Source: Chloroflexota bacterium (lineage in GTDB: Bacteria; Chloroflexota; UBA11872; JBHOQS01). Taken from it: a stretch of DNA of 64,000 bases. Shown piece after piece: positions 4,219 to 61,494 of the stretch (within the stretch, counting starts at the first letter, position 1; each line of letters starts with the position of its first letter). Where the stretch lies: the NCBI GenBank assembly GCA_042408875.1, contig JBHOQS010000015.1:79299-143298 (forward strand), in the 5' to 3' direction. The notes under the pieces are model-generated. The model ran no database searches and was not told the origin of the DNA. It worked only from the letters and a program-made list of their open reading frames with translations. Position numbers and translations under genes: made by a program.

Positions 4219-4387
4219 CGGCAAACGGCACGGCCGGCGGGCGAGCAGCGACGCTCCTGGCTACTGCTCGACCTCCGCGAGCGATCAGTGCGAGACGAGC
4301 AAAGACGAGCAACGACTGAGACGAGCAAAGACTGGCAAGGTCTACTCAACACGTAGACCCGGTACCTGGACGTGAAGGAGCATAACG

Positions 4388-18408: not shown

Positions 18409-18888
18409 CAACCCCAGGCCCAGCGCCACCACCCGCTCCGGACGCTGAAAGAGGCCGACCTTACACTCGAGCCCCAACCCCTCGGCGCGAGCACGGGCAT
18501 AGCTAACCATGAGCGAGCCGATCACCGCCATGTACGTGAGCGCCAGCTCCAGCAGCGAGCCACCGTGCTGGTAGTAGTATAGGAGCACGCCGAAGAACAG
18601 CGCCGCCTCGGAGATGCGGTCCATAGTTGAATCGAAGAAGGCCCCGAAAACAGTCTTCCTGTTCGCCACGCGGGCGAGCGCACCGTCGAGCATATCGAAG
18701 GCGCCGGAGAACAGCACCAGCGCGCCGCCCCAGGCGAGGTGGCCGCTAGCGATCACCGCAGCCGTGGCCAGGTTCAACAGGAAGCCGACCAGGGTCAGGG
18801 CGTTGGGCGAGACGCCGAGGCGCGCCAGCGGCGTAACGCTGCCCTCTGCCACGCGGCGAGCCAGATCAACCAGCCAGGAGGCGAACAT
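18304..18888 (-). CDS. CDP-alcohol phosphatidyltransferase (candidate phosphatidylinositol-phosphate synthase)
   Basis: FDMLDGALARVANRKTVFGAFFDSTMDRISE matches D-x2-DG-x2-AR...G-x3-D-x3-D; last gene of the PI/PIM operon. Confidence 0.85.
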   Translation of the reverse strand: MFASWLVDLARRVAEGSVTPLARLGVSPNALTLVGFLLNLATAAVIASGHLAWGGALVLFSGAFDMLDGALARVANRKTVFGAFFDSTMDRISEAALFFGVLLYYYQHGGSLLELALTYMAVIGSLMVSYARARAEGLGLECKVGLFQRPERVVALGLGLLLGRPTLEIAIAALAIISSITVVQRIAHIWRTAP

Positions 18889-18891
18889 AGG

Positions 18892-20058
18892 CTAGCCCGT
18901 GCTCGGCAGCAGCACACCCGGCACTGGGCGCCGCTGCGCAGCAAGGATGTCTTCGTAATAGGCCAGGATACGCCTGGCGATGCGGTCCCAGGCATAGGCC
19001 TGCACGCGGCGCCGGCCAGCCTCGGCCAGCCGGGCCCGATAGCCGTCATCGGCAATCAGACGGGTCAGCGCCACCGCCAGCGCCGTCGCATCCCCAGGCG
19101 GCACCAGCAGGCCGGCCTCACCCGCCGCCAGGACTGTGCGATAGCCCTCAATGTTAGAGGCCACCACCGGCTTGCCCGCCGCCATGGCCTCCAGCAGGAC
19201 GATCCCCTGGCTCTCCCGGCCGATCGCCGGGGCGCAGAACAGATCGCAGGACTTATAGTAGCGGATCTTGTCCTCGGGCGAGACGAAGCCCTTGAAGAGC
19301 ACGTCGGTCAGACCAGCCTGCCGCACGAACGTCTCGTAGGCCGCGCGCTGCTCGGCCTCGAAGGCGCCGACCACGAGCAGGCGCACGCTGGGGAATTGCT
19401 GCTTCACGTACGTGAGCGCCTGAAGTAGGTAGAGCAGCCCCTTGCGCTTCTCCAGGCGCCCTACGAAGAGGATGTTCAGGTAACCGTCGCGCAGCTCTGG
19501 GAAGGGCGCCAGGCGCGGGTCGGCGAACTGCTCCAGGTCCACGCCGTTGGGAATGATCTCGTACGTGGCCGGGAAGTACGTGCTGATGAACCGCATGGCC
19601 GCCGTCGAGACAGCAATGCGCCCATGAAGCTTGGCGAAGTAGCGCGCCAAGATCGGCTTACCCAGGCGGTAGCCGGTGTAGGAGCGGCGCGCCGCATGGA
19701 AGGTCGCCACGTTGACGGTCGTGGAATGGCGCAGCACAGTAATCGGTACTGCTGGCGCGAACGGCTCGTGTAGATGGATAATATCGAAGTTCTCGGCGGC
19801 AAGGATCTGCTTCACCCGCCGGGAGAGGGTGAGCGACAGGTTGATGCGCGCCACCGCCTGATTGGCCGGCACACCAATGATCCGCTCTCCCACGCGGTAG
19901 AGGTTGTCGCACGGGAGCTCACGCTCGTCTTTCGAGGACGGCGCCAGAATGCGCACCTGGTGGCCCAGCCGCCGAAACTGCTGGTCAAGGTGCCGGATGT
20001 GCTCGGTGACGCCGCCCGGATAAGCAAAGTCGTATGGCGAGACCAGGGCGATCTTCAT
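18892..20058 (-). CDS. pimA: GT4 glycosyltransferase, PimA-like (phosphatidylinositol mannosyltransferase candidate)
   Basis: ORF 18892..20139 trimmed to ATG 20058 (ATGA overlap with upstream stop). MKIALVSPYDFAYPGGVTEHIRHLDQQFRRLGHQVRILAPSS resembles the N-terminus of mycobacterial PimA as I recall it (recalled, not aligned); C-terminal GT4 motif region. Confidence 0.8.
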   Translation of the reverse strand: MKIALVSPYDFAYPGGVTEHIRHLDQQFRRLGHQVRILAPSSKDERELPCDNLYRVGERIIGVPANQAVARINLSLTLSRRVKQILAAENFDIIHLHEPFAPAVPITVLRHSTTVNVATFHAARRSYTGYRLGKPILARYFAKLHGRIAVSTAAMRFISTYFPATYEIIPNGVDLEQFADPRLAPFPELRDGYLNILFVGRLEKRKGLLYLLQALTYVKQQFPSVRLLVVGAFEAEQRAAYETFVRQAGLTDVLFKGFVSPEDKIRYYKSCDLFCAPAIGRESQGIVLLEAMAAGKPVVASNIEGYRTVLAAGEAGLLVPPGDATALAVALTRLIADDGYRARLAEAGRRRVQAYAWDRIARRILAYYEDILAAQRRPVPGVLLPSTG

Positions 20059-21017
20059 GGGCGTTCCCCTGCAAGTGTACCGGCGGCCGACTGCGACGCG
20101 GTCTCTTCTGCTGGCCACATGCGACGGAACAGCACCCACTGGCCGGGATCGGCTGCGATCGCCCGCTCCATCATCTCGGCTAATCGCTGCGTCCCGGCGA
20201 TAAGGTCGGCAAGCTCATCTGCCGTGCGCGGCACCTGGAAGAGCGGCTCCACCCAGGCATGGAAGCGGTCACCCGGCAGGCGCCTGGCAAAGGCCATCGA
20301 GATAGGTGCGCCGCTCAGGCGCGCCAGGCCCGCCGGACCTTCCGGCAATCTAGTCGTGCGCCCGAAGAAGCGCACCGGCACGCCCTGTCCCCCGCGGGGT
20401 AGGAAGTCTGCTGCGATGCCGACGATCTCGTTTCGGCGGAGGGCTCGCAGCAATGTGCGCAGACTATTGTGCTCCGGTACGATATGCAGGCCCTTGCTCC
20501 CACGCAGGTGCACTAGCAGTTCCCACAGCCGCTGAGAGCGAGGCACCTCCATCGGCACCCACGCCTGAAACCCGTGCAAGGCGAAGTACTGCCCTACCCA
20601 GTCGATGTTGCCGTAGTGGGCCATGCAGAGCACCAGCCCTTTCCCTTCGCCCAGCGCGGCCTCGATATGCTCCCACCCCTCTATATGTAACACCCGGTCG
20701 AGCTCTTCGGCACGCAGCAGCGGGATACGAAACAGGTCGACGTAGTTCCGTGCTGCGGTGCGAAAGCAGCGGCGCATCGTCTGGTGCACCAGCCGTCTCT
20801 GCTCCTGAGGCGGCAGCGTGGCGAAGACCACCTGAAGGTTCGCGCAGAGGTTCCGCCGCGCCGGACGGGCCGCATAGCAGGCCCCCAGCGCGGCGGCATC
20901 GGCCAGGGCATAGGCAGCCCGGCGCGGCAGCTTCGGGACCGCCCAGGCCCCGGCGCGAAAAAGCCAGTACACGACCGTGTCGCTCAGGCGCTCCGCGGCC
21001 ACGGCCGTCTCACTCAT
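20055..21017 (-). CDS. Lysophospholipid/lipid A-type acyltransferase (LpxL/HtrB/PatA-like)
   Basis: 323 aa; HYGNIDW acyltransferase motif region; overlaps both neighbours by 4 nt. Confidence 0.8.
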   Translation of the reverse strand: MSETAVAAERLSDTVVYWLFRAGAWAVPKLPRRAAYALADAAALGACYAARPARRNLCANLQVVFATLPPQEQRRLVHQTMRRCFRTAARNYVDLFRIPLLRAEELDRVLHIEGWEHIEAALGEGKGLVLCMAHYGNIDWVGQYFALHGFQAWVPMEVPRSQRLWELLVHLRGSKGLHIVPEHNSLRTLLRALRRNEIVGIAADFLPRGGQGVPVRFFGRTTRLPEGPAGLARLSGAPISMAFARRLPGDRFHAWVEPLFQVPRTADELADLIAGTQRLAEMMERAIAADPGQWVLFRRMWPAEETASQSAAGTLAGERP

Positions 21018-21955
21018 GCGAGGCCGGTGCCCGCCTCAGGCTGCGCCGCCGGCCCTGGCGCTTCCAGAAGCCCGCGTTCCGCCGGCTGGACCGGCGCACT
21101 GGGCCACATCGGCCGGAACATGTACCACTGATCGGGATGCAGGCGGATAATCCCCTCCAGGCCCTGGACGATCTGCTGCATCAGCGCCTGGACCTCCTGC
21201 TCGAAGTTGCCCGTCGAGGCCGGGATGATCGGCGGCGCAATCACGCCGGAGTAGGTGTTGTCTCGGTTCCGCCACATGCCCATCGGCACGACCACCGCGC
21301 CCGTCTTTAGCGCCAGCGCCGCGGCGCCAGCCGGCACGTTCGTGCGCTGTCTGAAAAAGGTCACCTCGACACCGCTGGCGTCAACGGGCCGGTCGATCAG
21401 GAGGCCGACGATCTGGTTTCGCCGCAGCACCCGGAAGAGCTTGCGCGCTGCGCCGTCCACGTCGATCACTTCGATGCCAGTGTGCCGGCGGATGCCCTGG
21501 ACCAGCTCGTTGAGCTGGGGCGGCTTGAAGGTATCCGCCACCACAGTGACTTTGAAGGTACGGGCCAGGAACGCCGCGCCCACATCCCAGTTCCCGAAGT
21601 GCCCGCTGACGAAGATGACCCCCTTCCCGTGCGCCAGCGCCTCCTCCAGGTGCTCCCACCCGCGCACGTGCCGGACAGCGCGGGCGATCTCTTCGGGCGA
21701 GAGGTGCCGCAGGCGCAAGAACTCCGCCAGGTACTTGGTGTAGTTGCGCATAGAGCGCCGGGCGACGAGCTTGACCTGCGGATGGTCGGGCGGCAGACCA
21801 AGCACCTGGGCCATGTTCTGCAAGGTGATCTGGCTCTTCTCGCGCCACAGCCAGTAGAAGCACTCGCCGGCGATTACTGCGACCAGGTAGACCAGCCAGC
21901 TAGGCAGTACCTTCACCAGCGCGCTGCACACGCGCATCAGTACGTAGGTAAGCAT
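21014..21955 (-). CDS. Lysophospholipid/lipid A-type acyltransferase (LpxL/HtrB/PatA-like), paralog
   Basis: 313 aa; GHFGNWD motif; ATGA-type overlap with downstream acyltransferase. Confidence 0.8.
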   Translation of the reverse strand: MLTYVLMRVCSALVKVLPSWLVYLVAVIAGECFYWLWREKSQITLQNMAQVLGLPPDHPQVKLVARRSMRNYTKYLAEFLRLRHLSPEEIARAVRHVRGWEHLEEALAHGKGVIFVSGHFGNWDVGAAFLARTFKVTVVADTFKPPQLNELVQGIRRHTGIEVIDVDGAARKLFRVLRRNQIVGLLIDRPVDASGVEVTFFRQRTNVPAGAAALALKTGAVVVPMGMWRNRDNTYSGVIAPPIIPASTGNFEQEVQALMQQIVQGLEGIIRLHPDQWYMFRPMWPSAPVQPAERGLLEAPGPAAQPEAGTGLA

Positions 21956-22012: not shown

Positions 22013-23236
22013 CTACGAGCACTCACCTGCGTCGTTGTGGGGGCGTGCCTGGTCAGCGCCTGCGCCTTCGCTACTGCCGGCCCGTGCTGAGCGGGGACGT
22101 GCCCGCTCGGCTGCCGGGCCGCCCTCGCGCTCCGCCGCCGCGCGCAGCGTTGCCGAAGTCAGGTTTGACTCGCCACGGATAAACGCCTCGACGAGATTAC
22201 GCGCCTCGGTATCGCTGTACTGCACCGGCGGCGACTTCATGAAATACGCCGATGGCCCTAGCACTGTGCCAGCCAGCCCGCGATCCATCGCCAGCTTGCA
22301 GCAGCGCACCGCATCGATCACGACACCAGCAGAGTTCGGTGAGTCCCACACCTCCAGCTTGAGCTCGATGTTCAGCGGCACATCACCGAACGAGCGCCCT
22401 TCCAACCGGATGTACGCCCATTTGCGGTCGGCCAGCCACGGCACGTAGTCGCTGGGGCCGATGTGCACGTTCTCGGACCCGATGTCGTAATCGAGCTGTG
22501 AGGTCACCGCGTTGGTCTTGCTTTCTTTCTTGGAGGCCAACCGTGCGCGCTCGAGCATGTTCAGGAAGTCGGTATTGCCGCCCACGTTGAGCTGGTAGGT
22601 GCGCTCCAGGCGCACGCCGCGCTCACGGAACAGGTTCACGAGTACGCGGTGAAGGATCGTGGCGCCCACCTGCGACTTAATGTCATCACCGATCACCGGC
22701 AAGCCACGGCTCTCGAAGCGCCGTTGCCAGTACCGCTCGCGCGCGATGAACACAGGGATGCAGTTGACAAAGCCACAGCCGGCGTCGAGCACCTGCTCGA
22801 CATACCACTTGGTCGCTTCTTCTGATCCCACTGGCAGGTAGTTCACCACCACGTCGGTCCCGGTGTCTCGTAGGATCTCCACGATGTCATCGGTTGAACC
22901 CGGCGCTTTCCGGATGACCCCGGCCAGATACTGGCCGATGCCGTCGTGCGTCATACCCCGATACACCGGCACACCCAGGTGCGGGACATTGGCGAACTTT
23001 ACGGTATTGTTCGGCGCGGTGAAGATCGCCTCGCTCAGATCGCGGCCCACCTTGCGTTCATCGATGTCGAACGCAGCGCTGAACTCGATATCGCCGATGT
23101 GATAGCCACCCAGATCAACATGCATGAGCCCCGGCACGAACTCATCGGTCGGGGCATGGCGATAGTAATGAACACCCTGGACCAGTGCCGACGCGCAGTT
23201 GCCGACGCCGACGATCGCCACGCGAACCTTGCTCAC
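22013..23236 (-). CDS. ino1: myo-inositol-1-phosphate synthase
   Basis: [28 protein letters not shown] ... [22 protein letters not shown] ... [19 protein letters not shown], typical of bacterial/archaeal MIPS; GTG start with AGGAGA RBS; about 50-aa C-terminal tail beyond the usual end. Confidence 0.88.
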
Positions 23237-23243
23237 CCACCGT

Positions 23244-23340
23244 CTCCTTTTATATTTATTTTATTATATTTATTTTTTTATTATATTATTTTTTATTATG
23301 CTATTTATGTTAGCTTGCATTATCTTTTGGTTGTATTATT
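23244..23340. promoter_or_regulatory. Extreme AT-rich island upstream of ino1 operon (probable promoter / unwinding element)
   Basis: About 95 bp almost entirely A/T in a GC-rich genome, directly upstream of the ino1 RBS and downstream of the ArsR gene stop. Confidence 0.5.
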
Positions 23341-23444
23341 GACTTCTCGTCCTAGCCCGGTTGCCCGGCGTCAAGCGTGCCGGGTATGCCCAGCACGGGC
23401 TCACGCCCAGGCAGTACGCCTGGCACACCGTCCAAGCCAGTGCC

Positions 23445-23831
23445 CTACCCAAGCGGCGCCTGTGCTTCCTCACCGACACGTGAAGTCCCGGCAGCGTTCT
23501 GGAGGCCTAGCTCGGGCACCGGCCCGCCTGCCGTGCCAGTGTAGACGAGCGCTTCGAGCTGCCGCAGGGCGCTGTGGAGGACAGCGTGGTCCAGCGTGCA
23601 GTAGACCTGCCGGCCCAGCTTCTGCGTGCGCACCAGCCCTGCCTTGCGCAGAATACGCAGGTGCCACGACATCAGCGGCTGGCTGATCCGCAGCGCACGC
23701 CCTAGCTCAGATACCGTCGTCTCGCCTGAGCGCGCCAGATGCTGCACCACCCGCAGGCGCGAGCGATCGCCCAGCGCCTTGAACAGCGCAGCCAGCTCGC
23801 GCAGCGCAGCCGCATCAGCCCCGCGTGACAT
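23445..23831 (-). CDS. ArsR/SmtB family transcriptional regulator
   Basis: LKALGDRSRLRVVQHLARSGETTVSELGRALRISQPLMSWHLRILRKAGLV winged-helix HTH typical of ArsR. Confidence 0.8.
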   Translation of the reverse strand: MSRGADAAALRELAALFKALGDRSRLRVVQHLARSGETTVSELGRALRISQPLMSWHLRILRKAGLVRTQKLGRQVYCTLDHAVLHSALRQLEALVYTGTAGGPVPELGLQNAAGTSRVGEEAQAPLG

Positions 23832-24195
23832 GCCGAACCGAACTCTTCCAGGTGACTCGTTCCGTCGCGCCTACCATCTCTCCGGTGCGCGCCCAGCCCG
23901 GATGCATCAAGCGGCGTTGATCAAACAAGTATTGAATAAACGACTATTAATTAAACACTCGTTGATGCATTCCAGCGTGTATGCTACCGTAGCGCTGGAC
24001 GCCTGTCAAGCACAGCGCCTGCGGCCGTGGGTCAGGGCGAGGGCTGCCCGGCGCGCCGCCGGCAGCGCCCGCTGGAGGTGCCAGCGGGCCGCTTGCATCC
24101 CTCGCCAGAACGGCCTACCATAGCAGCCGAAGGCTAGCTGCCGAACGCTGGCGGCTACAGGCTACACATCAGGAACGCAGTGCGATTGGCTCGCC

Positions 24196-24231
24196 GCAGC
24201 GATCGCTGGACCGGCAGCGATCGCTGGACCG
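24196..24231. repeat. Two tandem 18-bp repeats each containing the perfect palindrome CAGCGATCGCTG
   Basis: gcagcgatcgctggaccg x2 immediately upstream of the GGAGG RBS of the E1 alpha gene. Confidence 0.7.
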
Positions 24232-24252
24232 GCAGCGAAGGAGGCAGGACCG

Positions 24253-25257
24253 ATGGCCACGACTGTGCCCCGCACGCAGCTTGAGATCCAGGAGCTCGGC
24301 CTCGACCGCGCCAGGCTGGCCTGGATGTACCGCACGATGCTGCGCATCCGCCGCTTCGAGGAGCGGGTGAAGCAGCTCTTCCGGGACGCTCGCCTGCGTG
24401 GCAGCGTGCACCTGTATATCGGCGAAGAGGCCGTGGCGACCGGTGCCTGCGCCGCGTTGCGCCCGGACGATTACATCACCAGCACCCACCGCGGCCATGG
24501 CCACTGTATCGCCAAGGGGGGCCGGCTCGATCGTATGATGGCCGAGCTCTACGGACGTGAGACCGGCTACTGCAAGGGCAAGGGCGGCTCGATGCACATC
24601 GCCGACCTGGACTCCGGGATCCTGGGGGCCAACGGGATCGTCGGCGCAGGCATCCCTATCGCCGCCGGCGCGGCCCTGGGGGCACGCATTTTGGGGCGAG
24701 ACCGAGTCGCGCTCGCCTTCTTCGGCGATGGGGGTGCCAACCAGGGCGCCTTCCACGAGGGTATCAACTTCGCCGCGGTGCAGAAGCTGCCGGTCGTGTT
24801 CGTCTGCGAGAATAACCTGTACTCGCAGACCACACCGAACAAGTACACTATCGCCGGCGGCTCAGTAGCGCGCCGCGCCGAGGCATACGGCATCCCCGGC
24901 GAGCAGGTGGATGGCCAGGACGTGCTGGCAGTATACCGCGCGGTTAAGGCGGCCGTGGACCGCGCCCGCGCCGGCCAGGGGCCCTCGCTGATCGAGTGCT
25001 TGACCTACCGCTTCGAGGGGCACTTCCTGGGCGACCCCGAGACGTACCGCTCGCGTGAAGAGGTGCAGGAGTGGCGCGAGAAGCGTGATCCGATCCCGCT
25101 CTTCGCCGCCAAGCTGATCGCGGCCGGCCAGTTCTCGCAGGCCGAGCTCGACCAGATGGACCAGGAGGTGCTGGCCGAGGTCGAGGACGCGGTGCGCTTC
25201 GCCGAGAGCAGCCCGCTGCCACGCCTCGAGGCGCTCTGGGAAGATGTGTATGCCTGA
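24253..25257 (+). CDS. Thiamine-diphosphate-dependent 2-oxoacid (pyruvate/acetoin-type) dehydrogenase E1 alpha subunit
   Basis: GDGGANQGAFHEGINFAA ... YRFEGH TPP-binding E1 alpha signatures. Confidence 0.9.
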   Translation: MATTVPRTQLEIQELGLDRARLAWMYRTMLRIRRFEERVKQLFRDARLRGSVHLYIGEEAVATGACAALRPDDYITSTHRGHGHCIAKGGRLDRMMAELYGRETGYCKGKGGSMHIADLDSGILGANGIVGAGIPIAAGAALGARILGRDRVALAFFGDGGANQGAFHEGINFAAVQKLPVVFVCENNLYSQTTPNKYTIAGGSVARRAEAYGIPGEQVDGQDVLAVYRAVKAAVDRARAGQGPSLIECLTYRFEGHFLGDPETYRSREEVQEWREKRDPIPLFAAKLIAAGQFSQAELDQMDQEVLAEVEDAVRFAESSPLPRLEALWEDVYA

Positions 25258-28934: not shown

Positions 28935-28966
28935 TCGTACAATAGACACATCGTACAATAGACACA
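28935..28966. repeat. Tandem direct repeat 16 bp x2 (tcgtacaatagacaca)
   Basis: Perfect duplication just downstream of the LarA-like stop, within a lower-GC 439-bp intergenic region. Confidence 0.8.
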
Positions 28967-29230: not shown

Positions 29231-29294
29231 GAAGACACGCATGGCGCGGAAGACACGCATGGCGCGGAAGACACACATGGCGCGTCAAGACACG
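29231..29294. repeat. Tandem 18-bp repeat, about 3.5 copies (gaagacacgcatggcgcg)
   Basis: Copies at 29231, 29249, 29267 (one mismatch) and a partial fourth; non-coding, upstream of the permease start. Confidence 0.8.
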
Positions 29295-29365: not shown

Positions 29366-30307
29366 ATGTCGGCTGACCGTGTTCTGGCACCGCCATCACC
29401 GCTCACCATAGCGCGACGAGCACGCTGGTCTGCCCTGGGGCCGGACTGGAAGATCGGGTACGCGCTGGTTCTACCGGTCGTCAGCATCCTGCTCGCATTC
29501 ATCGCTGTTCCCTTCCTGACCTCGATCTTGATGAGCTTCCAGGACATACGAGCCGGCGGGGACGCGGTGTTCGTCGGCCTGCGCAACTACACCAGTCTGC
29601 TGTTCGGTGCGAACCGGGCGCGCTTCCTCAATAGCGTGTGGGTGAGCTTCCTGTATACGTTCGCCGCTATTGTGTTGAAGTTCATCCTGGGTATGACGCT
29701 GGCGCTGGTGCTGCATAGCGCTATCCGCGGCCGCAACTTCTTCCGCGCGCTCCTCTTCCTGCCGTGGTCTATCCCCGCTGTGGTCAGCGCGTACGCCTGG
29801 AAGTGGATCTACGACGATATGCGCGGCGTCCTGAACGTGGAGCTCAGCTACTTCGGCCTGATCAAGGAGCCCATTCTCTGGACTGCCGACATCAACCTGG
29901 CGCTCTGGGCGGTGGTCGCAGCAGTAGTCTGGCAGGGCACGCCCTTCTGGACTATGACCTTCCTCGCCGGGCTCCAGTCGATCCCTCATGAGCTCTACGA
30001 TGCCGCGCATATCGACGGCGCCGGCGCCTTGCAGAGCTTCTTTTATGTCACATTACCCAGCCTGGCCAATGTGATCCTGGTGACGGTGCTGCTCTCGACT
30101 ATCTGGACAGCCAACGGCCTCCAGTACGTGTACATCCTCACGGCGGGCGGGCCGGCGAACAGCACAGAGATCTTCCCCATGCTAGCGCTGAACCTGGGTC
30201 TGCGGGCGTACGACCTGGGCATGGGGGCCACGGTGCCGCTGATGTTCTTCCCGTTCTTTGCCGTGCTGATCGTTATTCTGACCAGGCGCATGCTTCAGCA
30301 TGAGTAG
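29366..30307 (+). CDS. ABC transporter permease (MalF/UgpA-type sugar permease)
   Basis: ORF 29111..30307 trimmed to ATG 29366 with GGAGGT RBS; the upstream part of the ORF spans the tandem repeats; EAA-type loop region. Confidence 0.85.
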   Translation: MSADRVLAPPSPLTIARRARWSALGPDWKIGYALVLPVVSILLAFIAVPFLTSILMSFQDIRAGGDAVFVGLRNYTSLLFGANRARFLNSVWVSFLYTFAAIVLKFILGMTLALVLHSAIRGRNFFRALLFLPWSIPAVVSAYAWKWIYDDMRGVLNVELSYFGLIKEPILWTADINLALWAVVAAVVWQGTPFWTMTFLAGLQSIPHELYDAAHIDGAGALQSFFYVTLPSLANVILVTVLLSTIWTANGLQYVYILTAGGPANSTEIFPMLALNLGLRAYDLGMGATVPLMFFPFFAVLIVILTRRMLQHE

Positions 30308-53793: not shown

Positions 53794-54030
53794 GACCTCC
53801 TTCTATCCTCCTATCGCGTGCATTGCGTGCCACACGGTCACGCGTCTGCTAGCGAAGGCGCTTTAGCCCCTTTAGCATAGAAACAACGTATAGCAGGAAA
53901 CGTATAGCAGGATTCGTGCCATACGTGGCTACGAAGCCGAAGGCGGTCCCATGCGTCCCACGACGCGCCGGGCATACCGCTCCACCGCCCCGGTAGAACT
54001 TCTCGGATAGATGTTGGATAGATGGCAGCG

Positions 54031-54093
54031 ACATTGTTCATTAAGACATTGCTCATTAAGACATTGTTCATTAATAAGACATTGTTCGTTAAG
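54031..54093. repeat. Tandem 15-bp repeat, 4 copies (acattgttcattaag, one with 3-bp insertion)
   Basis: Copies at 54031, 54046, 54061, 54079 in a low-GC stretch; additional short duplications at 53885..53913 and 54005..54023. Confidence 0.8.
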
Positions 54094-54269
54094 ATGATCG
54101 TCTCGTCTGTGAGCCGGTCGAGCAGGGAGCGGTCGTGTGAGACGAGAAGCAGCGTGCCGGCGAAGTGTCTGAGCGCTGCTTCGATCTGCTCGCGGGTCGG
54201 GATATCCAGATGGGTCGGCTCGCCCAGCAGCCGGACGTCCGGCTGCGTACCATGGATTACTTCCAGCAT
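54075..54269 (-). pseudogene. Remnant of an ABC-type ATPase (Walker B / D-loop / H-loop region only)
   Basis: ORF 53838..54269 begins MLEVIHGTQPDVRLLGEPTHLDIPTREQIEAALRHFAGTLLLVSHDRSLLDRLTDETIIL, resembling the C-terminal end of an ABC nucleotide-binding domain with Walker B Asp replaced by Gly; no Walker A or signature motif; then runs into the tandem repeat. Confidence 0.4.
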
Positions 54270-54607: not shown

Positions 54608-55240
54608 ATGATCATTCACGTCTTTACCGGTGGGCCGGTGGCGACGAACGGCTACCTGGTCGTGGACGAGCCCACCCGCCAGGCAATGATCGTGGACGCG
54701 CCGATGGGCGCGGCCCGCGCTATGCTGAGCTGGGTCCATCAGGACCAGGCCACGATCGCCCTCATTGTGGCCACACACGGCCACTGGGACCACATCGTGG
54801 ACCTCGCTGAGCTGCACGAGCGCACCGGCGCGCCGGTAGCTGTCCATCCTGACGATCGCCCCAAGCTTGAGCAGCCGGGCAGCGCGCTGGTTCAACTCCC
54901 CTTCACCATCCGGCCGGTCACGCCGCAGCGGGAGCTCCGGGAGGGGGAGATCGTGGAGACCGGCCTGCTGCGCTTTGAGGTGCTGCACACGCCGGGCCAC
55001 TCACCCGGCGGGATCTGCCTCTATGAGCGCCAGCAGGGAGTGCTCTTCGCCGGGGATACGCTCTTCGCCGGCAGCTATGGCCGCACTGATCTCCCCGATG
55101 CCGATGAGGCGGCGATGATGGCTAGCTTGCGCCGGCTTGCGGCCCTGCCACCTGAGGTGCAAGTCTACAGCGGCCACGGCGAGATGACCACGATCGGGCG
55201 CGAGGCGGGGTGGATCAGACGCCTGGCAGGCAGCAGGTAA
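54608..55240 (+). CDS. MBL-fold metallo-hydrolase (glyoxalase II-like)
   Basis: THGHWDH metal-binding motif, HTPGHSPGG, later conserved Asp/His. Confidence 0.85.
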   Translation: MIIHVFTGGPVATNGYLVVDEPTRQAMIVDAPMGAARAMLSWVHQDQATIALIVATHGHWDHIVDLAELHERTGAPVAVHPDDRPKLEQPGSALVQLPFTIRPVTPQRELREGEIVETGLLRFEVLHTPGHSPGGICLYERQQGVLFAGDTLFAGSYGRTDLPDADEAAMMASLRRLAALPPEVQVYSGHGEMTTIGREAGWIRRLAGSR

Positions 55241-55340
55241 CACTCCAGAGGCAATAATTTTTTTTATTTTATTTTTTCTCATTTTCGTAGGGCCGTACCG
55301 CCAGGGCCGTACATCGGGCAGTCGTGGTGCATCCCGGAAC

Positions 55341-56591
55341 TCATGCTCCAGCGGCGGCCGGCTCAGCCTGCTGCACGCCCACCTCGCTCACCCCACGCTC
55401 TGCGACCTGCCGGCAGTCTCTGAGTGCCAGTACGATCTCCTCGCGTACGCTGGGGTCCTGCTCGACATCGAGACGACGCTCCAGGGCAGCCACGGCCTGC
55501 TGCTTGAGCGCGGGCGGAACAGCAGAGCTCGCCGCGAGACGTCCCAGTGCCCAGGCGGCGTGCCCGCGCACAACTGGATGGTCGTGCTGCTCTAGCACCC
55601 GGATCAGCGGCGGCACTGCTGCCGGGTCGCCGCTGTTGCCCAGCGCCACACACACGTTGCGCTGCAGGCCCCAGCGCTTGGCCCGCAGCACCGGCGAGCC
55701 GCGGAATCGCTGGCGAAACGCAGCGTCGTCCAGCTCGAGAAGCGGGATGAGCTCAGGCAGCGCCTGCTCCGGCGAGGCCGGCTCGAACTCAGCGACCCGC
55801 GTCAGCACCGGCCGGGCGTTGTAGGGGCACACATCCTGGCAGATGTCGCAGCCGAAGATCCAGTCACCCATCTGCGCCCGCAGCTCGCGCGGGATCGGAC
55901 CGCGGTTCTCGATCGTGTGATAGGAAATGCACTTGCGGTTATCCAGCACACCTGGTGCCACCAGTGCGCCGGTAGGGCAGGCGCGCAGGCACAGCGTACA
56001 GCGCCCGCAGGGTTGCTTCTGCGACGGCGCGTCGGGCACGAGCTCGCAGTCCACGATGAGCTCGGCCAGAAACACGAACGAGCCCTTGGGCGTGAGCAGG
56101 CAGGTGTTCTTGCCGGGCGAGCCCAGACCCGCTCGACGTGCCACCGCGCGTTCAGCGAGCGGGCCGGAGTCCACGAAGTAGCGAAAACGTGGCCGACGCC
56201 CGGTGGCCCGCTCCAGATAGTCCACAATTTGGAAGAGCTTCTTCTTGAGCACGTCGTGGTAGTCACGCCCCCAGGCGTAGCGGGCGATGCGGCCGCGCGG
56301 GCGGCCCGGCTCTCCAGCAGGCAGGCGCGCCGCCGAGCGATACGAGACGCCCAGTGCAATGATCGCCCGCGCCTCGGGCAAGAGCGCTCGCGGATCGGTC
56401 GCCCGCCGCACACGCTCGGCGGTGAACCAGTGGTAGCCGTCCATCAGGCCGGCCTCCAGGCGCTCCAGCATACGCGCCCGATCCTCCTCGAACAGCTCCG
56501 GCCCGGTGATGCCGACCAGGTCGAAGCCTAGTGAGCGCGCATAGCGTTTGAGCTCGTTCGTCAGCGTCTGCGGGTCAGGCGACATCGACAT
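55341..56591 (-). CDS. queG: Epoxyqueuosine reductase
   Basis: Two ferredoxin-type Cys clusters (CGRCTLCLRACP, CDICQDVCPYN) and C-terminal HEAT-like repeats typical of QueG. Confidence 0.85.
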   Translation of the reverse strand: MSMSPDPQTLTNELKRYARSLGFDLVGITGPELFEEDRARMLERLEAGLMDGYHWFTAERVRRATDPRALLPEARAIIALGVSYRSAARLPAGEPGRPRGRIARYAWGRDYHDVLKKKLFQIVDYLERATGRRPRFRYFVDSGPLAERAVARRAGLGSPGKNTCLLTPKGSFVFLAELIVDCELVPDAPSQKQPCGRCTLCLRACPTGALVAPGVLDNRKCISYHTIENRGPIPRELRAQMGDWIFGCDICQDVCPYNARPVLTRVAEFEPASPEQALPELIPLLELDDAAFRQRFRGSPVLRAKRWGLQRNVCVALGNSGDPAAVPPLIRVLEQHDHPVVRGHAAWALGRLAASSAVPPALKQQAVAALERRLDVEQDPSVREEIVLALRDCRQVAERGVSEVGVQQAEPAAAGA

Positions 56592-58952: not shown

Positions 58953-58994
58953 TACTGCCTATACATACTGCCTATACAGCATACTGCCTATACA
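58953..58994. repeat. Three direct copies of tactgcctataca
   Basis: Copies at 58953, 58966, 58982 in the intergenic region upstream of the aminotransferase gene. Confidence 0.8.
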
Positions 58995-59097
58995 GGGCTC
59001 TTCCAGGGCAAAAGCTACTTCTTCCCTGCACACCTCACAGGGATTTGGCGCAACAAGAGTCCTTCGGCAGTGCGACGTTCCTGCCACACCTGCAGAA

Positions 59098-59670
59098 CTA
59101 TACCATCCGGCTACGGAGGGAGTCGAGACGCGCGGCGAGCTGGGCGGCATGTGCGTCGCAGCAGCGATCGGTCTTGCGGTCGGTGTCGTCGAGCGTGTTC
59201 GAAAAGTACATCACGCAGGCCGGGTCAGCGCAGTGCTCCAGGCCATACGTATGTCCGAGCTCGTGCACGGCCTCCTTGACCGCCCGCGCTAGCAGCACCT
59301 GCTGGTCGGGAGGCTGCCCCCAGAATTCGGGGCGTAGGCGCGCCAAGGCGATCACAGCGGCAGGACCGCCGCGCTGGGCCTGGCCGAAAATGAAGTTCAG
59401 GCCAGGGGCAAACAGATCAAGGTCAGCCACGCCCAGCAGACGCTCTGCGTTGCCACGGAGCGCGAGCAGCCGTTGCAGGATCGGCGCAGCCAGATACTGC
59501 CTGCGCCGCGGCACAAAGGCCTCGTGGGGAGGGGAGGGTCCGTGGGGCTCCAGGCGAACGGCGCGGCCGGGAAACCGCGCCGCAATGGCCGGCAGCAGCC
59601 CGCTGAGGATGTCGTGGGGCACGTCTCCGATAGGCACAAGCACGATAACTGGCTGGTTCGTCTGCACCAT
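59098..59670 (-). CDS. Archaemetzincin-like zinc metalloprotease (M54 family)
   Basis: HELGHTYGLEHCADPACVMYFSNTLDDTDRKTDRCC matches HExxHxxGxxHCxxxxCxM...CxxC. Confidence 0.8.
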   Translation of the reverse strand: MVQTNQPVIVLVPIGDVPHDILSGLLPAIAARFPGRAVRLEPHGPSPPHEAFVPRRRQYLAAPILQRLLALRGNAERLLGVADLDLFAPGLNFIFGQAQRGGPAAVIALARLRPEFWGQPPDQQVLLARAVKEAVHELGHTYGLEHCADPACVMYFSNTLDDTDRKTDRCCDAHAAQLAARLDSLRSRMV

Positions 59671-59841
59671 ACGCCCTAGCCTTTCACGTAGTTTTATATA
59701 TTTTTCCTTACTTTTCCTCCCTAACCCGTATCCCTAACTCGTACCTCCATTGACTCAGGTCGTTGAGTATGCTACCCCGGTCATGGAGTCACAGCATAGG
59801 AGCGCCTGCAGGGAGCCAGCGCCACCGAGGAGGAGACGCAC

Positions 59842-61126: not shown

Positions 61127-61494
61127 TGGTGGAGATGGGGGAGAGTCGAACTCCCCGTCCAGAGCCGATCCGCCGAAAGTGCCTACAAGCTTAGCCGACC
61201 TTTTGCTCTCGCACATCCGGCACCGATCGGCGGGTGCGACGGATGCGCCAGCTCATGCGTCTTTGCCGGATCCTATGAGCCTCAGACCCGGCGCACTCCG
61301 GCATTGTCACGCCCGTTCACTCCCCACCGGAGCGAGGGAGTGGCGGACGACGCTGTGCGGCTTCGTTAGGCCGCCAGAGCGTAGCTGTACTGCGGCTTGG
61401 CAGTTATTTTTTCGCCGGTTGTTTTACGAGACGGTTACCGGCACCTCGGCTTGCCACTTCCGACCAATCGACCCTGTCGAAACCCGACATCCCC
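61127..61494 (-). ncRNA. ssrA: tmRNA (transfer-messenger RNA)
   Basis: Minus-strand 5' end GGGGAUGUCGGGUUUCGACAGGG and 3' end ...GGGGAGUUCGACUCUCCCCCAUCUCCACCA (T-arm, acceptor stem pairing with the 5' end, encoded CCA); internal tag frame ends ...YSYALAA then UAA. Confidence 0.85.

Follow-up and report, generated by a model that had tools for sequence, protein, structure and literature searches.

An A/T-rich tandem-repeat tract in front of ino1 in a GC-rich Chloroflexota bacterium: a possible unstructured leader for translation

The closest described counterparts of the element presented here are ribosome standby sites and A/U- or CA-rich translation enhancers, known from MS2 coat, tisB, S1-dependent AU-rich sequences and ACA motifs (PMC5934652, PMC3879156, PMC5389652). 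In E. coli, translation from a structured start site increases strongly when single-stranded tails of CA or AU repeats lie beside it (PMC5934652), ACA motifs placed before the Shine-Dalgarno (SD) sequence behave as enhancers (PMC3879156), and efficient 5' untranslated regions (UTRs) are C-poor and may carry several SDs (PMC5389652). Here we consider an A/T-rich tract directly upstream of ino1, the gene for myo-inositol-1-phosphate synthase, in 64,000 nucleotides of a Chloroflexota bacterium (assembly GCA_042408875.1, contig JBHOQS010000015.1, positions 79,299 to 143,298 of the forward strand; hereafter the window, whose numbering is used throughout). The tract shares with the standby and enhancer systems a predicted single-stranded, A-rich and G-poor segment directly 5' of the SD beside stable structure, and differs from them in its length (approximately 100 nt vs. 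the 16–18 nt at which the effect saturates in E. coli), in the tandem repeats of which it is built, which turn over from one lineage to the next, and in its intercistronic position in a 66% GC genome, where it is known from sequence alone.

Two further kinds of described system resemble the locus in part. Contingency loci, among them Neisseria nadA with its upstream TAAA repeats and the Haemophilus hif promoter with its TA repeats, likewise place short A/T-rich tandem repeats immediately before a gene, with differences from one related lineage to another, and the leader of an E1 dehydrogenase gene next to our locus truly varies in copy number (3.9, 1.9 and 1); the ino1 repeats differ from them in that the units are 13–15 nt rather than 1–7 nt, the array is constant within a lineage, and the operon served is one for a housekeeping lipid precursor rather than a surface antigen, in what the relatives of its Ino1 suggest is an environmental, Chloroflexota-related bacterium. 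In E. coli papBA a hairpin and an AU-rich RNase E site uncouple a regulator gene from the abundant gene downstream of it, and the same order of regulator gene, stable hairpins, single-stranded A/U-rich stretch and highly needed gene is found here, although for the present locus the likeness is one of layout in the sequence and cleavage is purely hypothetical.

The reading that we favour, and hold only tentatively, is that the tract is a transcribed, unstructured intercistronic leader that would act as a ribosome standby or translation-enhancer region for ino1. All of the relevant genes (the arsR-family gene, ino1 and the set downstream) lie on the minus strand, so that the sense sequence runs from high to low coordinates, and the elements on which the argument turns are the following.

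23248..23345, minus strand: A/T-rich tract, 98 nt, 87% A/T.
23248..23299, minus strand: pure A/T core of the tract without G or C, 52 nt.
23244..23249, minus strand: ino1 SD, AAGGAG, 7 nt before the GTG start at 23236..23234.
23346..23444, minus strand: GC-rich, hairpin-forming half of the spacer, 99 nt, with no U-tract after the hairpins.

The spacer between the arsR-family stop codon (23447..23445) and ino1 is 208 nt long and the tract makes up its 3' half. The sequence-only reading of this locus had described a nearly pure A/T stretch of about 95 bp in GC-rich DNA that begins after the ArsR stop and ends at the ino1 ribosome-binding site. The stretch is real (the letters quoted there lie at 23247-23309 on the plus strand) and its end is correctly placed, as the tract adjoins the SD at 23249..23244, but its start was misjudged by approximately 100 nt, with the GC-rich hairpin segment intervening between the stop codon and the tract.

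The composition of the tract is exceptional for the window, which has 66.3% GC overall. Its sense strand contains 64 A, 21 T, 8 C and 5 G (39 A and 13 T in the core), the core is the longest A/T-only run (the runner-up, at 55253-55277, is 25 nt), and the 100 nt from 23248 to 23347 are the lowest in GC at 14%, the next lowest being 35%. A 52-nt A/T-only run would be expected approximately 1e-20 times in 64 kb at the composition of the window. This figure overstates the rarity, since units of approximately 15 nt recur in tandem within the tract; allowing for about 15 independent positions gives a chance of about 0.005 per window by our own arithmetic (0.337^15 × 64,000), so that an origin by chance is still unlikely, yet far less extreme than the uncorrected figure. 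Among 48 gene starts in the window the ino1 leader (positions −60 to −13) is 100% A/T, compared with a median of 34% and a next highest value of 67%, and as a lone outlier it implies that A/T-rich leaders are not the rule in this genome. Next in A/T content comes the leader at 59671-59720 on the minus strand, which reads GGAGGAAAAGTAAGGAAAAATATATAAAAC and precedes a gene for an M54 (archaemetzincin-like) peptidase (59670..59098).

An assembly artefact can be ruled out, since a second, independent assembly (L081, from the Logan set, run SRR24490439) shows no difference from the window across 751 aligned bases that include the whole tract; L081 carries the same arsR-family protein and may represent the same strain as the source of the window. 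The sequence-only reading had also raised the prospect of the same tract recurring at many unrelated loci. A 20-mer from the tract matched only its own site in the window with up to 3 mismatches allowed, an 11-mer was absent from 169 of the 171 loci that were fetched (one of the two that match being L081, the same locus), and the tract sequence had no match in viral contigs, which rules out a dispersed repeat or the remnant of a mobile element within these three sets. A known RNA family (riboswitch, thermometer or sRNA) was likewise ruled out, as an Rfam scan returned no match over the tract at E ≤ 1.

The core is a degenerate tandem repeat with a unit of approximately 15 nt (AAATATAATAAAAAT-like) in roughly three to four copies, for which Tandem Repeats Finder (TRF) gives a period of 15, 2.9–3.5 copies and 82–90% matches. 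Read in the sense direction the units of the tract are AAGCTAACATAAAT, AGCATAATAAAAAAT, AATATAATAAAAAAAT, AAATATAATAAAAT and AAATATAAAAGGAG, and the final copy (AAATATAAAAGGAG) runs into the ino1 SD. In the mechanism that we propose, a short A-rich unit would have been amplified in place by slippage-type events to give the tract, which fills the same position as the different short-repeat arrays of sister lineages. The mRNA would then carry, after a strongly folded GC-rich segment, a run of approximately 100 nt with approximately 65% A that ends at the SD, and with nearly no G or C this run could not fold. Such a single-stranded run would offer ribosomes a landing (standby) or enhancer region and would shield the ino1 start site from being trapped by its GC-rich neighbours, allowing efficient ribosome loading onto an enzyme gene that lies downstream of the gene for a low-abundance regulator.

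RNA folding calculations for the window itself bear on this proposal. The tract is wholly unpaired in the predicted minimum-energy fold, and the mean probability of being unpaired over positions −75 to −15 of the leader is 0.81 at 37 °C and 0.90 at 65 °C, whereas the GC-rich half of the spacer gives 0.26–0.27. Opening the native ino1 ribosome-binding site (−18 to +13) is predicted to cost 8.8 kcal/mol, a value that rises to 15.6 ± 2.8 kcal/mol when the tract is swapped for random sequence of 66% GC, with 2% of such replacements matching the native opening cost. The strand asymmetry of the tract (A:T of 64:21, and 39:13 in the core) is explained by a role at the RNA level, while a role as duplex DNA does not require it.

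To see how the tract has fared in evolution, it is useful to separate distant from close relatives. The distant set comprises 80 ino1 loci among the matches listed, from other phyla and classes, with Ino1 proteins 69–80% identical. Nothing comparable to the tract was found upstream of ino1 in these 80 loci, where the longest A/T run is 21 nt (in a genome of 45% GC), and the tract is thus ruled out as a conserved feature of ino1 upstream regions. A protein search gave three closer groups, all known from metagenomes only and with Ino1 89–94% identical; exact look-ups of the Ino1 and E1 proteins of the window had no match, and a metagenome scan with the ArsR protein returned only relatives of at most 67% identity. 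We refer to the window and L081 as lineage A, to L082–L084 as lineage B, and to L085 and L166–L171 as lineage C. The close relatives share the gene order of the window, in which a divergent E1/E2 dehydrogenase pair is followed by arsR, ino1, two acyltransferase genes, a GT4 glycosyltransferase gene and a CDP-alcohol transferase gene.

Between these lineages the coding DNA is 84–88% identical while the spacer is essentially unalignable, being kept at a length of approximately 194–230 nt with a different sequence in each. In lineage B it consists of AAAAGCTAACAAC in 4.9 copies, ending at the SD, and in lineage C of GCTAACTACTAACAC followed by a 2-copy repeat, CCCTGAT(C/G)CTAATA... The SD itself, AAGGAG, is invariant across all three lineages, and beyond the SD region the spacer of the relatives shares with the window only an anchor at the 5' end of the tract, formed by CCAAAAGA and, just downstream of it, the following unit.

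23308..23316, minus strand: AAGCTAACA, the sole unit common to the window and its relatives.

CCAAAAGA is common to the window and lineage B, and the counterparts of AAGCTAACA are GCTAACA, present five times, in lineage B and GCTAAC, ACTAAC, CCTAAT and GCTAAT in lineage C. A global alignment of the tract to the lineage B array gives 50% identity against 27 ± 18% (maximum 69%) for shuffled sequences, so homology of the whole tract is not significant and only the CCAAAAGA ... AAGCTAACA anchor is convincingly shared. What does persist is the composition: the 100 nt before the SD have 14% GC in the window, 34% in lineage B and 38–39% in lineage C, against 63–67% for the whole loci. The lineage B array is also A-rich and G-poor in its sense strand (54% A, 11% G), and its CA/A-rich repeats resemble the CA-repeat tails and ACA motifs tested in E. 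coli. Copy number at ino1 is constant within lineages, with 4.9 copies in all three lineage B samples and no variation among the seven of lineage C; as L081 is identical to the window as well, a phase-variable (contingency) repeat at ino1 finds no support. Lineage B additionally carries a perfect 20-bp hairpin after the arsR stop (L082 3826-3891), whose 26-nt loop CTCCCGGTGCGGCCGCACCATGTGCC has exactly opposite orientations in L082/L083 and in L084, probably through a template-switch event between the inverted repeats.

It is also important to consider whether the tract is transcribed, and from where. The sequence-only reading had placed it upstream of an ino1 operon, which is correct as far as it goes; on the minus strand, the transcription unit probably starts with the arsR-family gene rather than with ino1. 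The relevant features upstream of the tract are as follows.

23445..23831, minus strand: ArsR/HTH_20-family regulator gene, 128 aa, co-directional with ino1.
23917..23973, minus strand: AT-rich block just downstream of the arsR −10, with the palindromic core TTAATTAA, conserved in three lineages.
23981..24009, minus strand: promoter-like TTGACA-17-TAGCAT upstream of arsR, conserved in three lineages.

TTGACA-17-TAGCAT, the only promoter-like match that our promoter scan found in the relatives, is the probable promoter of the arsR-ino1 operon, and the AT-rich block, which is also rich in TAAT/TTAA with a core TTAATTAAT, its probable operator. On the other strand a TTGCAT-17-TACCAT, read by eye at approximately 24079-24122 (plus), would serve the E1 operon. 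A terminator scan found no terminator-like site between arsR and ino1 in the window or in either relative lineage, and it found no intrinsic terminator for antisense transcripts either. In 82 of the 171 fetched loci (L019-L165), which come from Chloroflexota, Dormibacterota, Actinomycetes and many contigs of soil metagenomes, the gene immediately before ino1 is of the arsR family and points the same way. Gaps of 12–40 nt between the two genes in some distant relatives imply that they are co-transcribed there; in many soil contigs the gap is approximately 750 nt, which suggests an intervening gene. From the conserved arsR promoter-like site, the missing terminator and the pairing of the genes we infer a single arsR-ino1 operon whose transcript would include the tract. 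It would then probably be transcribed mostly or wholly, either as an intercistronic leader from the arsR promoter or as the 5' UTR of an internal start.

The conserved blocks upstream of arsR also serve as an internal reference, for they imply that real regulatory DNA at this locus survives the divergence between the lineages, and the ino1-proximal tract does not. An unalignable spacer, set against the conserved block after the arsR promoter, suggests that the tract is not a specific binding site. The presence of different repeats at the same position while nearby regulatory sites are conserved points instead to selection on composition or structure rather than on sequence.

The case for an unstructured leader also draws on the low GC before the SD, which persists in three lineages despite the turnover of sequence, and on a tract that ends exactly at the SD with its last repeat copy fused to it. 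Several observations weigh on the other side. The mean probability of being unpaired falls to 0.72 in lineage B and 0.49 in lineage C, so that the lineage C leader is approximately half paired, and for opening the ribosome-binding site the leaders of B and C are no better than random spacers (fractions of 0.33 and 0.28), from which it follows that accessibility is not a conserved property. Deleting the tract in silico gives an opening cost of 10.0 kcal/mol, only 1.2 above the native value. The saturation of the E. coli standby effect at 16–18 nt (PMC5934652) leaves a length of approximately 100 nt unexplained, other gene leaders in the window (with their median of 34% A/T) are unlike that of ino1, two perfect TATAAT hexamers in the tract favour promoter activity, and the amplification of a single A-rich unit would suffice, with no selection at all, to make the tract as pure and as strand-biased as it is.

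The tract was also characterized as duplex DNA, given that the sequence-only reading had suggested curved DNA and an unwinding element among its possible roles. In a simplified one-bubble calculation of the Benham type for superhelical destabilisation, the tract is the sole site with an opening probability above 0.1 in 5-kb and 10-kb domains, opening at superhelical densities of −0.035 to −0.055 at 37 °C and at lower densities at 65 °C. The prediction for curvature is quite different. A Bolshoy-type wedge model gives a bend across the tract of at most 32 degrees, where the 95th percentile of the background in the surrounding 7 kb is 22–43 degrees depending on window size; with 27-nt flanks on each side the bend reaches at most 43 degrees, less than composition-matched shuffles give on average (56 degrees), while a phased A-tract control reaches 143 degrees. 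The repeat period of approximately 15 nt is out of helical phase, and intrinsic curvature, lying within the regional background, is not supported.

Of the rival explanations, the leading one, an internal, lineage-specific ino1 promoter, is somewhat unlikely. On this account an A/T block that melts readily, with −10 hexamers and with flanks resembling UP elements, would drive ino1 independently of the arsR promoter, and the candidate −10 elements are these.

23268..23263 and 23285..23280, minus (sense) strand: two perfect TATAAT hexamers, candidate internal −10 elements.

They end 26 and 43 nt before the ino1 GTG, a GATAAT lies at the 5' edge of the tract, and the promoter scan finds within it CTAACA-17-AATAAT at 23313..23285, a 9/12 match; if a TATAAT or the 9/12 site fires, the final 20–75 nt of the tract would be a 5' UTR. 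The tract being the only predicted destabilised site in 5–10 kb fits this account as well, and so does the possibility that the GC-rich hairpins after arsR are terminators, as termination in GC-rich bacteria can occur at hairpins that lack a U-tract. However, reading by eye finds no −35-like hexamer suitably spaced from either TATAAT, the spacer of the relatives contains no promoter-like site although their operon and SD are the same, and neither the excess of A over T nor the fusion to the SD is needed for a promoter. The UP-element promoter proposed in the sequence-only reading shares with the tract its A/T-rich DNA upstream of a gene and its −10-like hexamers, but UP elements, as at rrnB P1, are approximately 20 bp long and lie upstream of a −35, whereas the tract is about five times longer, is missing in syntenic relatives, has no −35 hexamer or defined −40 to −60 position, and extends to the SD; as it reaches −12 from the start codon, the bulk of it would fall downstream of wherever a UP element could sit. 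That proposal has the two hexamers in its favour and, as the main role, has against it the extent of the tract, the spacer of the relatives and the conserved promoter-like site of arsR. Where AT-rich promoter boxes do precede ino1 in other GC-rich genomes among the listed loci, their A/T runs are at most 15 nt. A neutral by-product, namely a short tandem repeat amplified by slippage, decayed towards A/T in a weakly constrained spacer and tolerated without specific function, is unlikely in our estimation. The tandem-repeat structure itself is what it would predict, as are three different sequences at the same site in three lineages and a spacer that cannot be aligned between lineages whose flanking genes are 84–88% identical. 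The window is also somewhat enriched in such arrays: 9 of its 11 TRF arrays scoring at least 50, the strongest here, are intergenic, though intergenic DNA is only approximately 14% of the window, and their density of 1.7 per 10 kb is 2–3 times that of distant loci (0.6–0.9), with copy number varying at the neighbouring E1 dehydrogenase leader. Neutrality accounts less readily for the low GC that all three lineages keep at precisely this place, for the maintained spacer length, for arrays that always terminate at the SD, for the uniform copy number in the three lineage B and seven lineage C samples, and for the ino1 leader as unique outlier among the 48 gene starts.

Far less probable is an array of protein-binding sites, in which TAAT or CTAA(C/T) units would bind the ArsR-family regulator (as a second operator or roadblock), an A/T-preferring nucleoid protein or an RNA-binding protein. 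CTAA(C/T) or TAAT does occur 4–5 times in the leader of each lineage, and the conserved block after the arsR promoter is likewise rich in TAAT/TTAA, but the motif is very low in information, its spacing is unlike between lineages (13 nt in B, irregular in C and approximately 15 nt in A), and the tract sequence is not conserved while that block is. ArsR/SmtB proteins moreover typically bind inverted repeats, and CTAAC is not enriched elsewhere in the window, for which reason it was rejected as a genome-wide motif. We find it scarcely credible that the tract is the unwinding element of a replication origin or encodes a translated leader peptide. Its predicted ease of unwinding agrees with stress-induced duplex destabilisation sites and DNA unwinding elements, and this part of the sequence-only proposal holds up at the level of prediction; an origin role does not, as DnaA-box matches are at chance level with none closer to the tract than 13 kb, the cumulative GC skew stays monotonic throughout the window and passes the tract without a turn, and there are no origin genes nearby. 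With neither DnaA boxes nor a skew switch nothing suggests an origin, and that the tract transmits superhelical stress to a promoter is only conjecture. As for a peptide, the upstream open reading frame (ORF) MQANINSIIKNNIIKK at 23320..23270 has 16 codons and is rich in codons rare in this genome (ATA 1.0, AAT 4.6 and AAA 2.8 per 1000), but it has no SD and its ATG is missing in lineages B and C, which speaks against it. A hydrophobic plus-strand peptide was set aside too, since the 246-aa ORF in question, antisense to ino1/arsR, looks like a spurious ORF of high-GC DNA; the part of the tract that it spans is not kept in sequence in the relatives.

The genes of the operon downstream of the tract give some indication of what an unstructured ino1 leader would serve.

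22013..23236, minus strand: ino1, myo-inositol-1-phosphate synthase, 407 aa, assigned by Pfam PF01658 (E = 3.6e-38) and homologues.
18409..21955, minus strand: rest of the operon, downstream of ino1.
21955..21014 and 21017..20055, minus strand: two Lip_A acyltransferase genes.
20139..18892, minus strand: GT4 glycosyltransferase gene.
18891..18409, minus strand: CDP-alcohol phosphatidyltransferase gene.

Together, ino1 and the genes downstream resemble a pathway for phosphatidylinositol (PI) and acylated PI-mannosides. In Corynebacteria and Mycobacteria the described regulator of ino1 is the LacI-type IpsA (PMC3899939), and our literature search found no account of an ArsR-type ino1 regulator.

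Repeat arrays that abut an SD are found at a second gene of the locus. The leader of the E1 dehydrogenase gene (24196-24252, plus strand; ATG at 24253) contains an 18-mer, GCAGCGATCGCTGGACCG, in 2.4 copies and fused to the SD AGGAGG, and before the E1 ATG an SD-containing 15-mer, AGGAGGCAGGACCGA, is present in 3.9 copies in L082 (2917-2975), in 1.9 copies in L084 (99-127) and once in the window and L166, making this a multi-SD leader of variable copy number in the relatives. Repeats of 2–4 copies with units of 13–18 nt lie in further intergenic or leader regions of the window at 4293-4334, 28935-28966, 29231-29294, 53885-53912, 54030-54094, 58953-58995 and 59718-59743; the array at 29231-29294 falls inside the longest ORF of an ABC permease gene and is probably upstream of the true start near 29366. 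One may ask whether SD-abutting tandem-repeat arrays are evolvable expression dials in this lineage, which we regard as doubtful and well on the unlikely side. The E1 leader with its 1, 1.9 or 3.9 copies of an SD-containing unit speaks for it, and ino1 has such an array in each lineage, namely an A/T-only 15-mer in the window, five copies of a 13-mer in lineage B, and two copies of a repeat in lineage C. As far as the literature was checked we found no description of repeat-driven translation tuning in environmental bacteria, and a search on tandem repeats in GC-rich Chloroflexi returned nothing relevant. If this reading is true, the A/T island would be one end state of a general repeat-driven tuning of translation in a GC-rich genome.

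Two other features of the window may be recorded. The 25-nt run at 55253-55277, T-rich on the plus strand, begins 13 nt past the stop codon of a gene for a metallo-beta-lactamase-fold protein (54608-55240, plus) and lies between convergent genes, the other being a queG-like gene (55341-56591, minus); it may be the U-tract of a terminator, though no clear hairpin scored. A tmRNA gene at 61127-61494 (minus), with the tag peptide AKPQYSYALAA, is the only Rfam match above the gathering score in the window.

Most likely the tract is a striking but fairly ordinary kind of element. Every candidate mechanism considered here is of a known kind, and what is unusual is the composition, the length, the tandem-repeat build and the turnover of arrays at a position abutting the SD. 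Should the tract be a promoter or a neutral product of slippage, it would be a curiosity of limited reach. If it does act at the RNA level, it would be an unusually clean natural case of an amplified leader free of G and C that isolates a start site in a GC-rich genome. The tract gives an experimental handle on the expression of ino1 and of inositol lipids downstream of a widely conserved, uncharacterised ArsR-family regulator.

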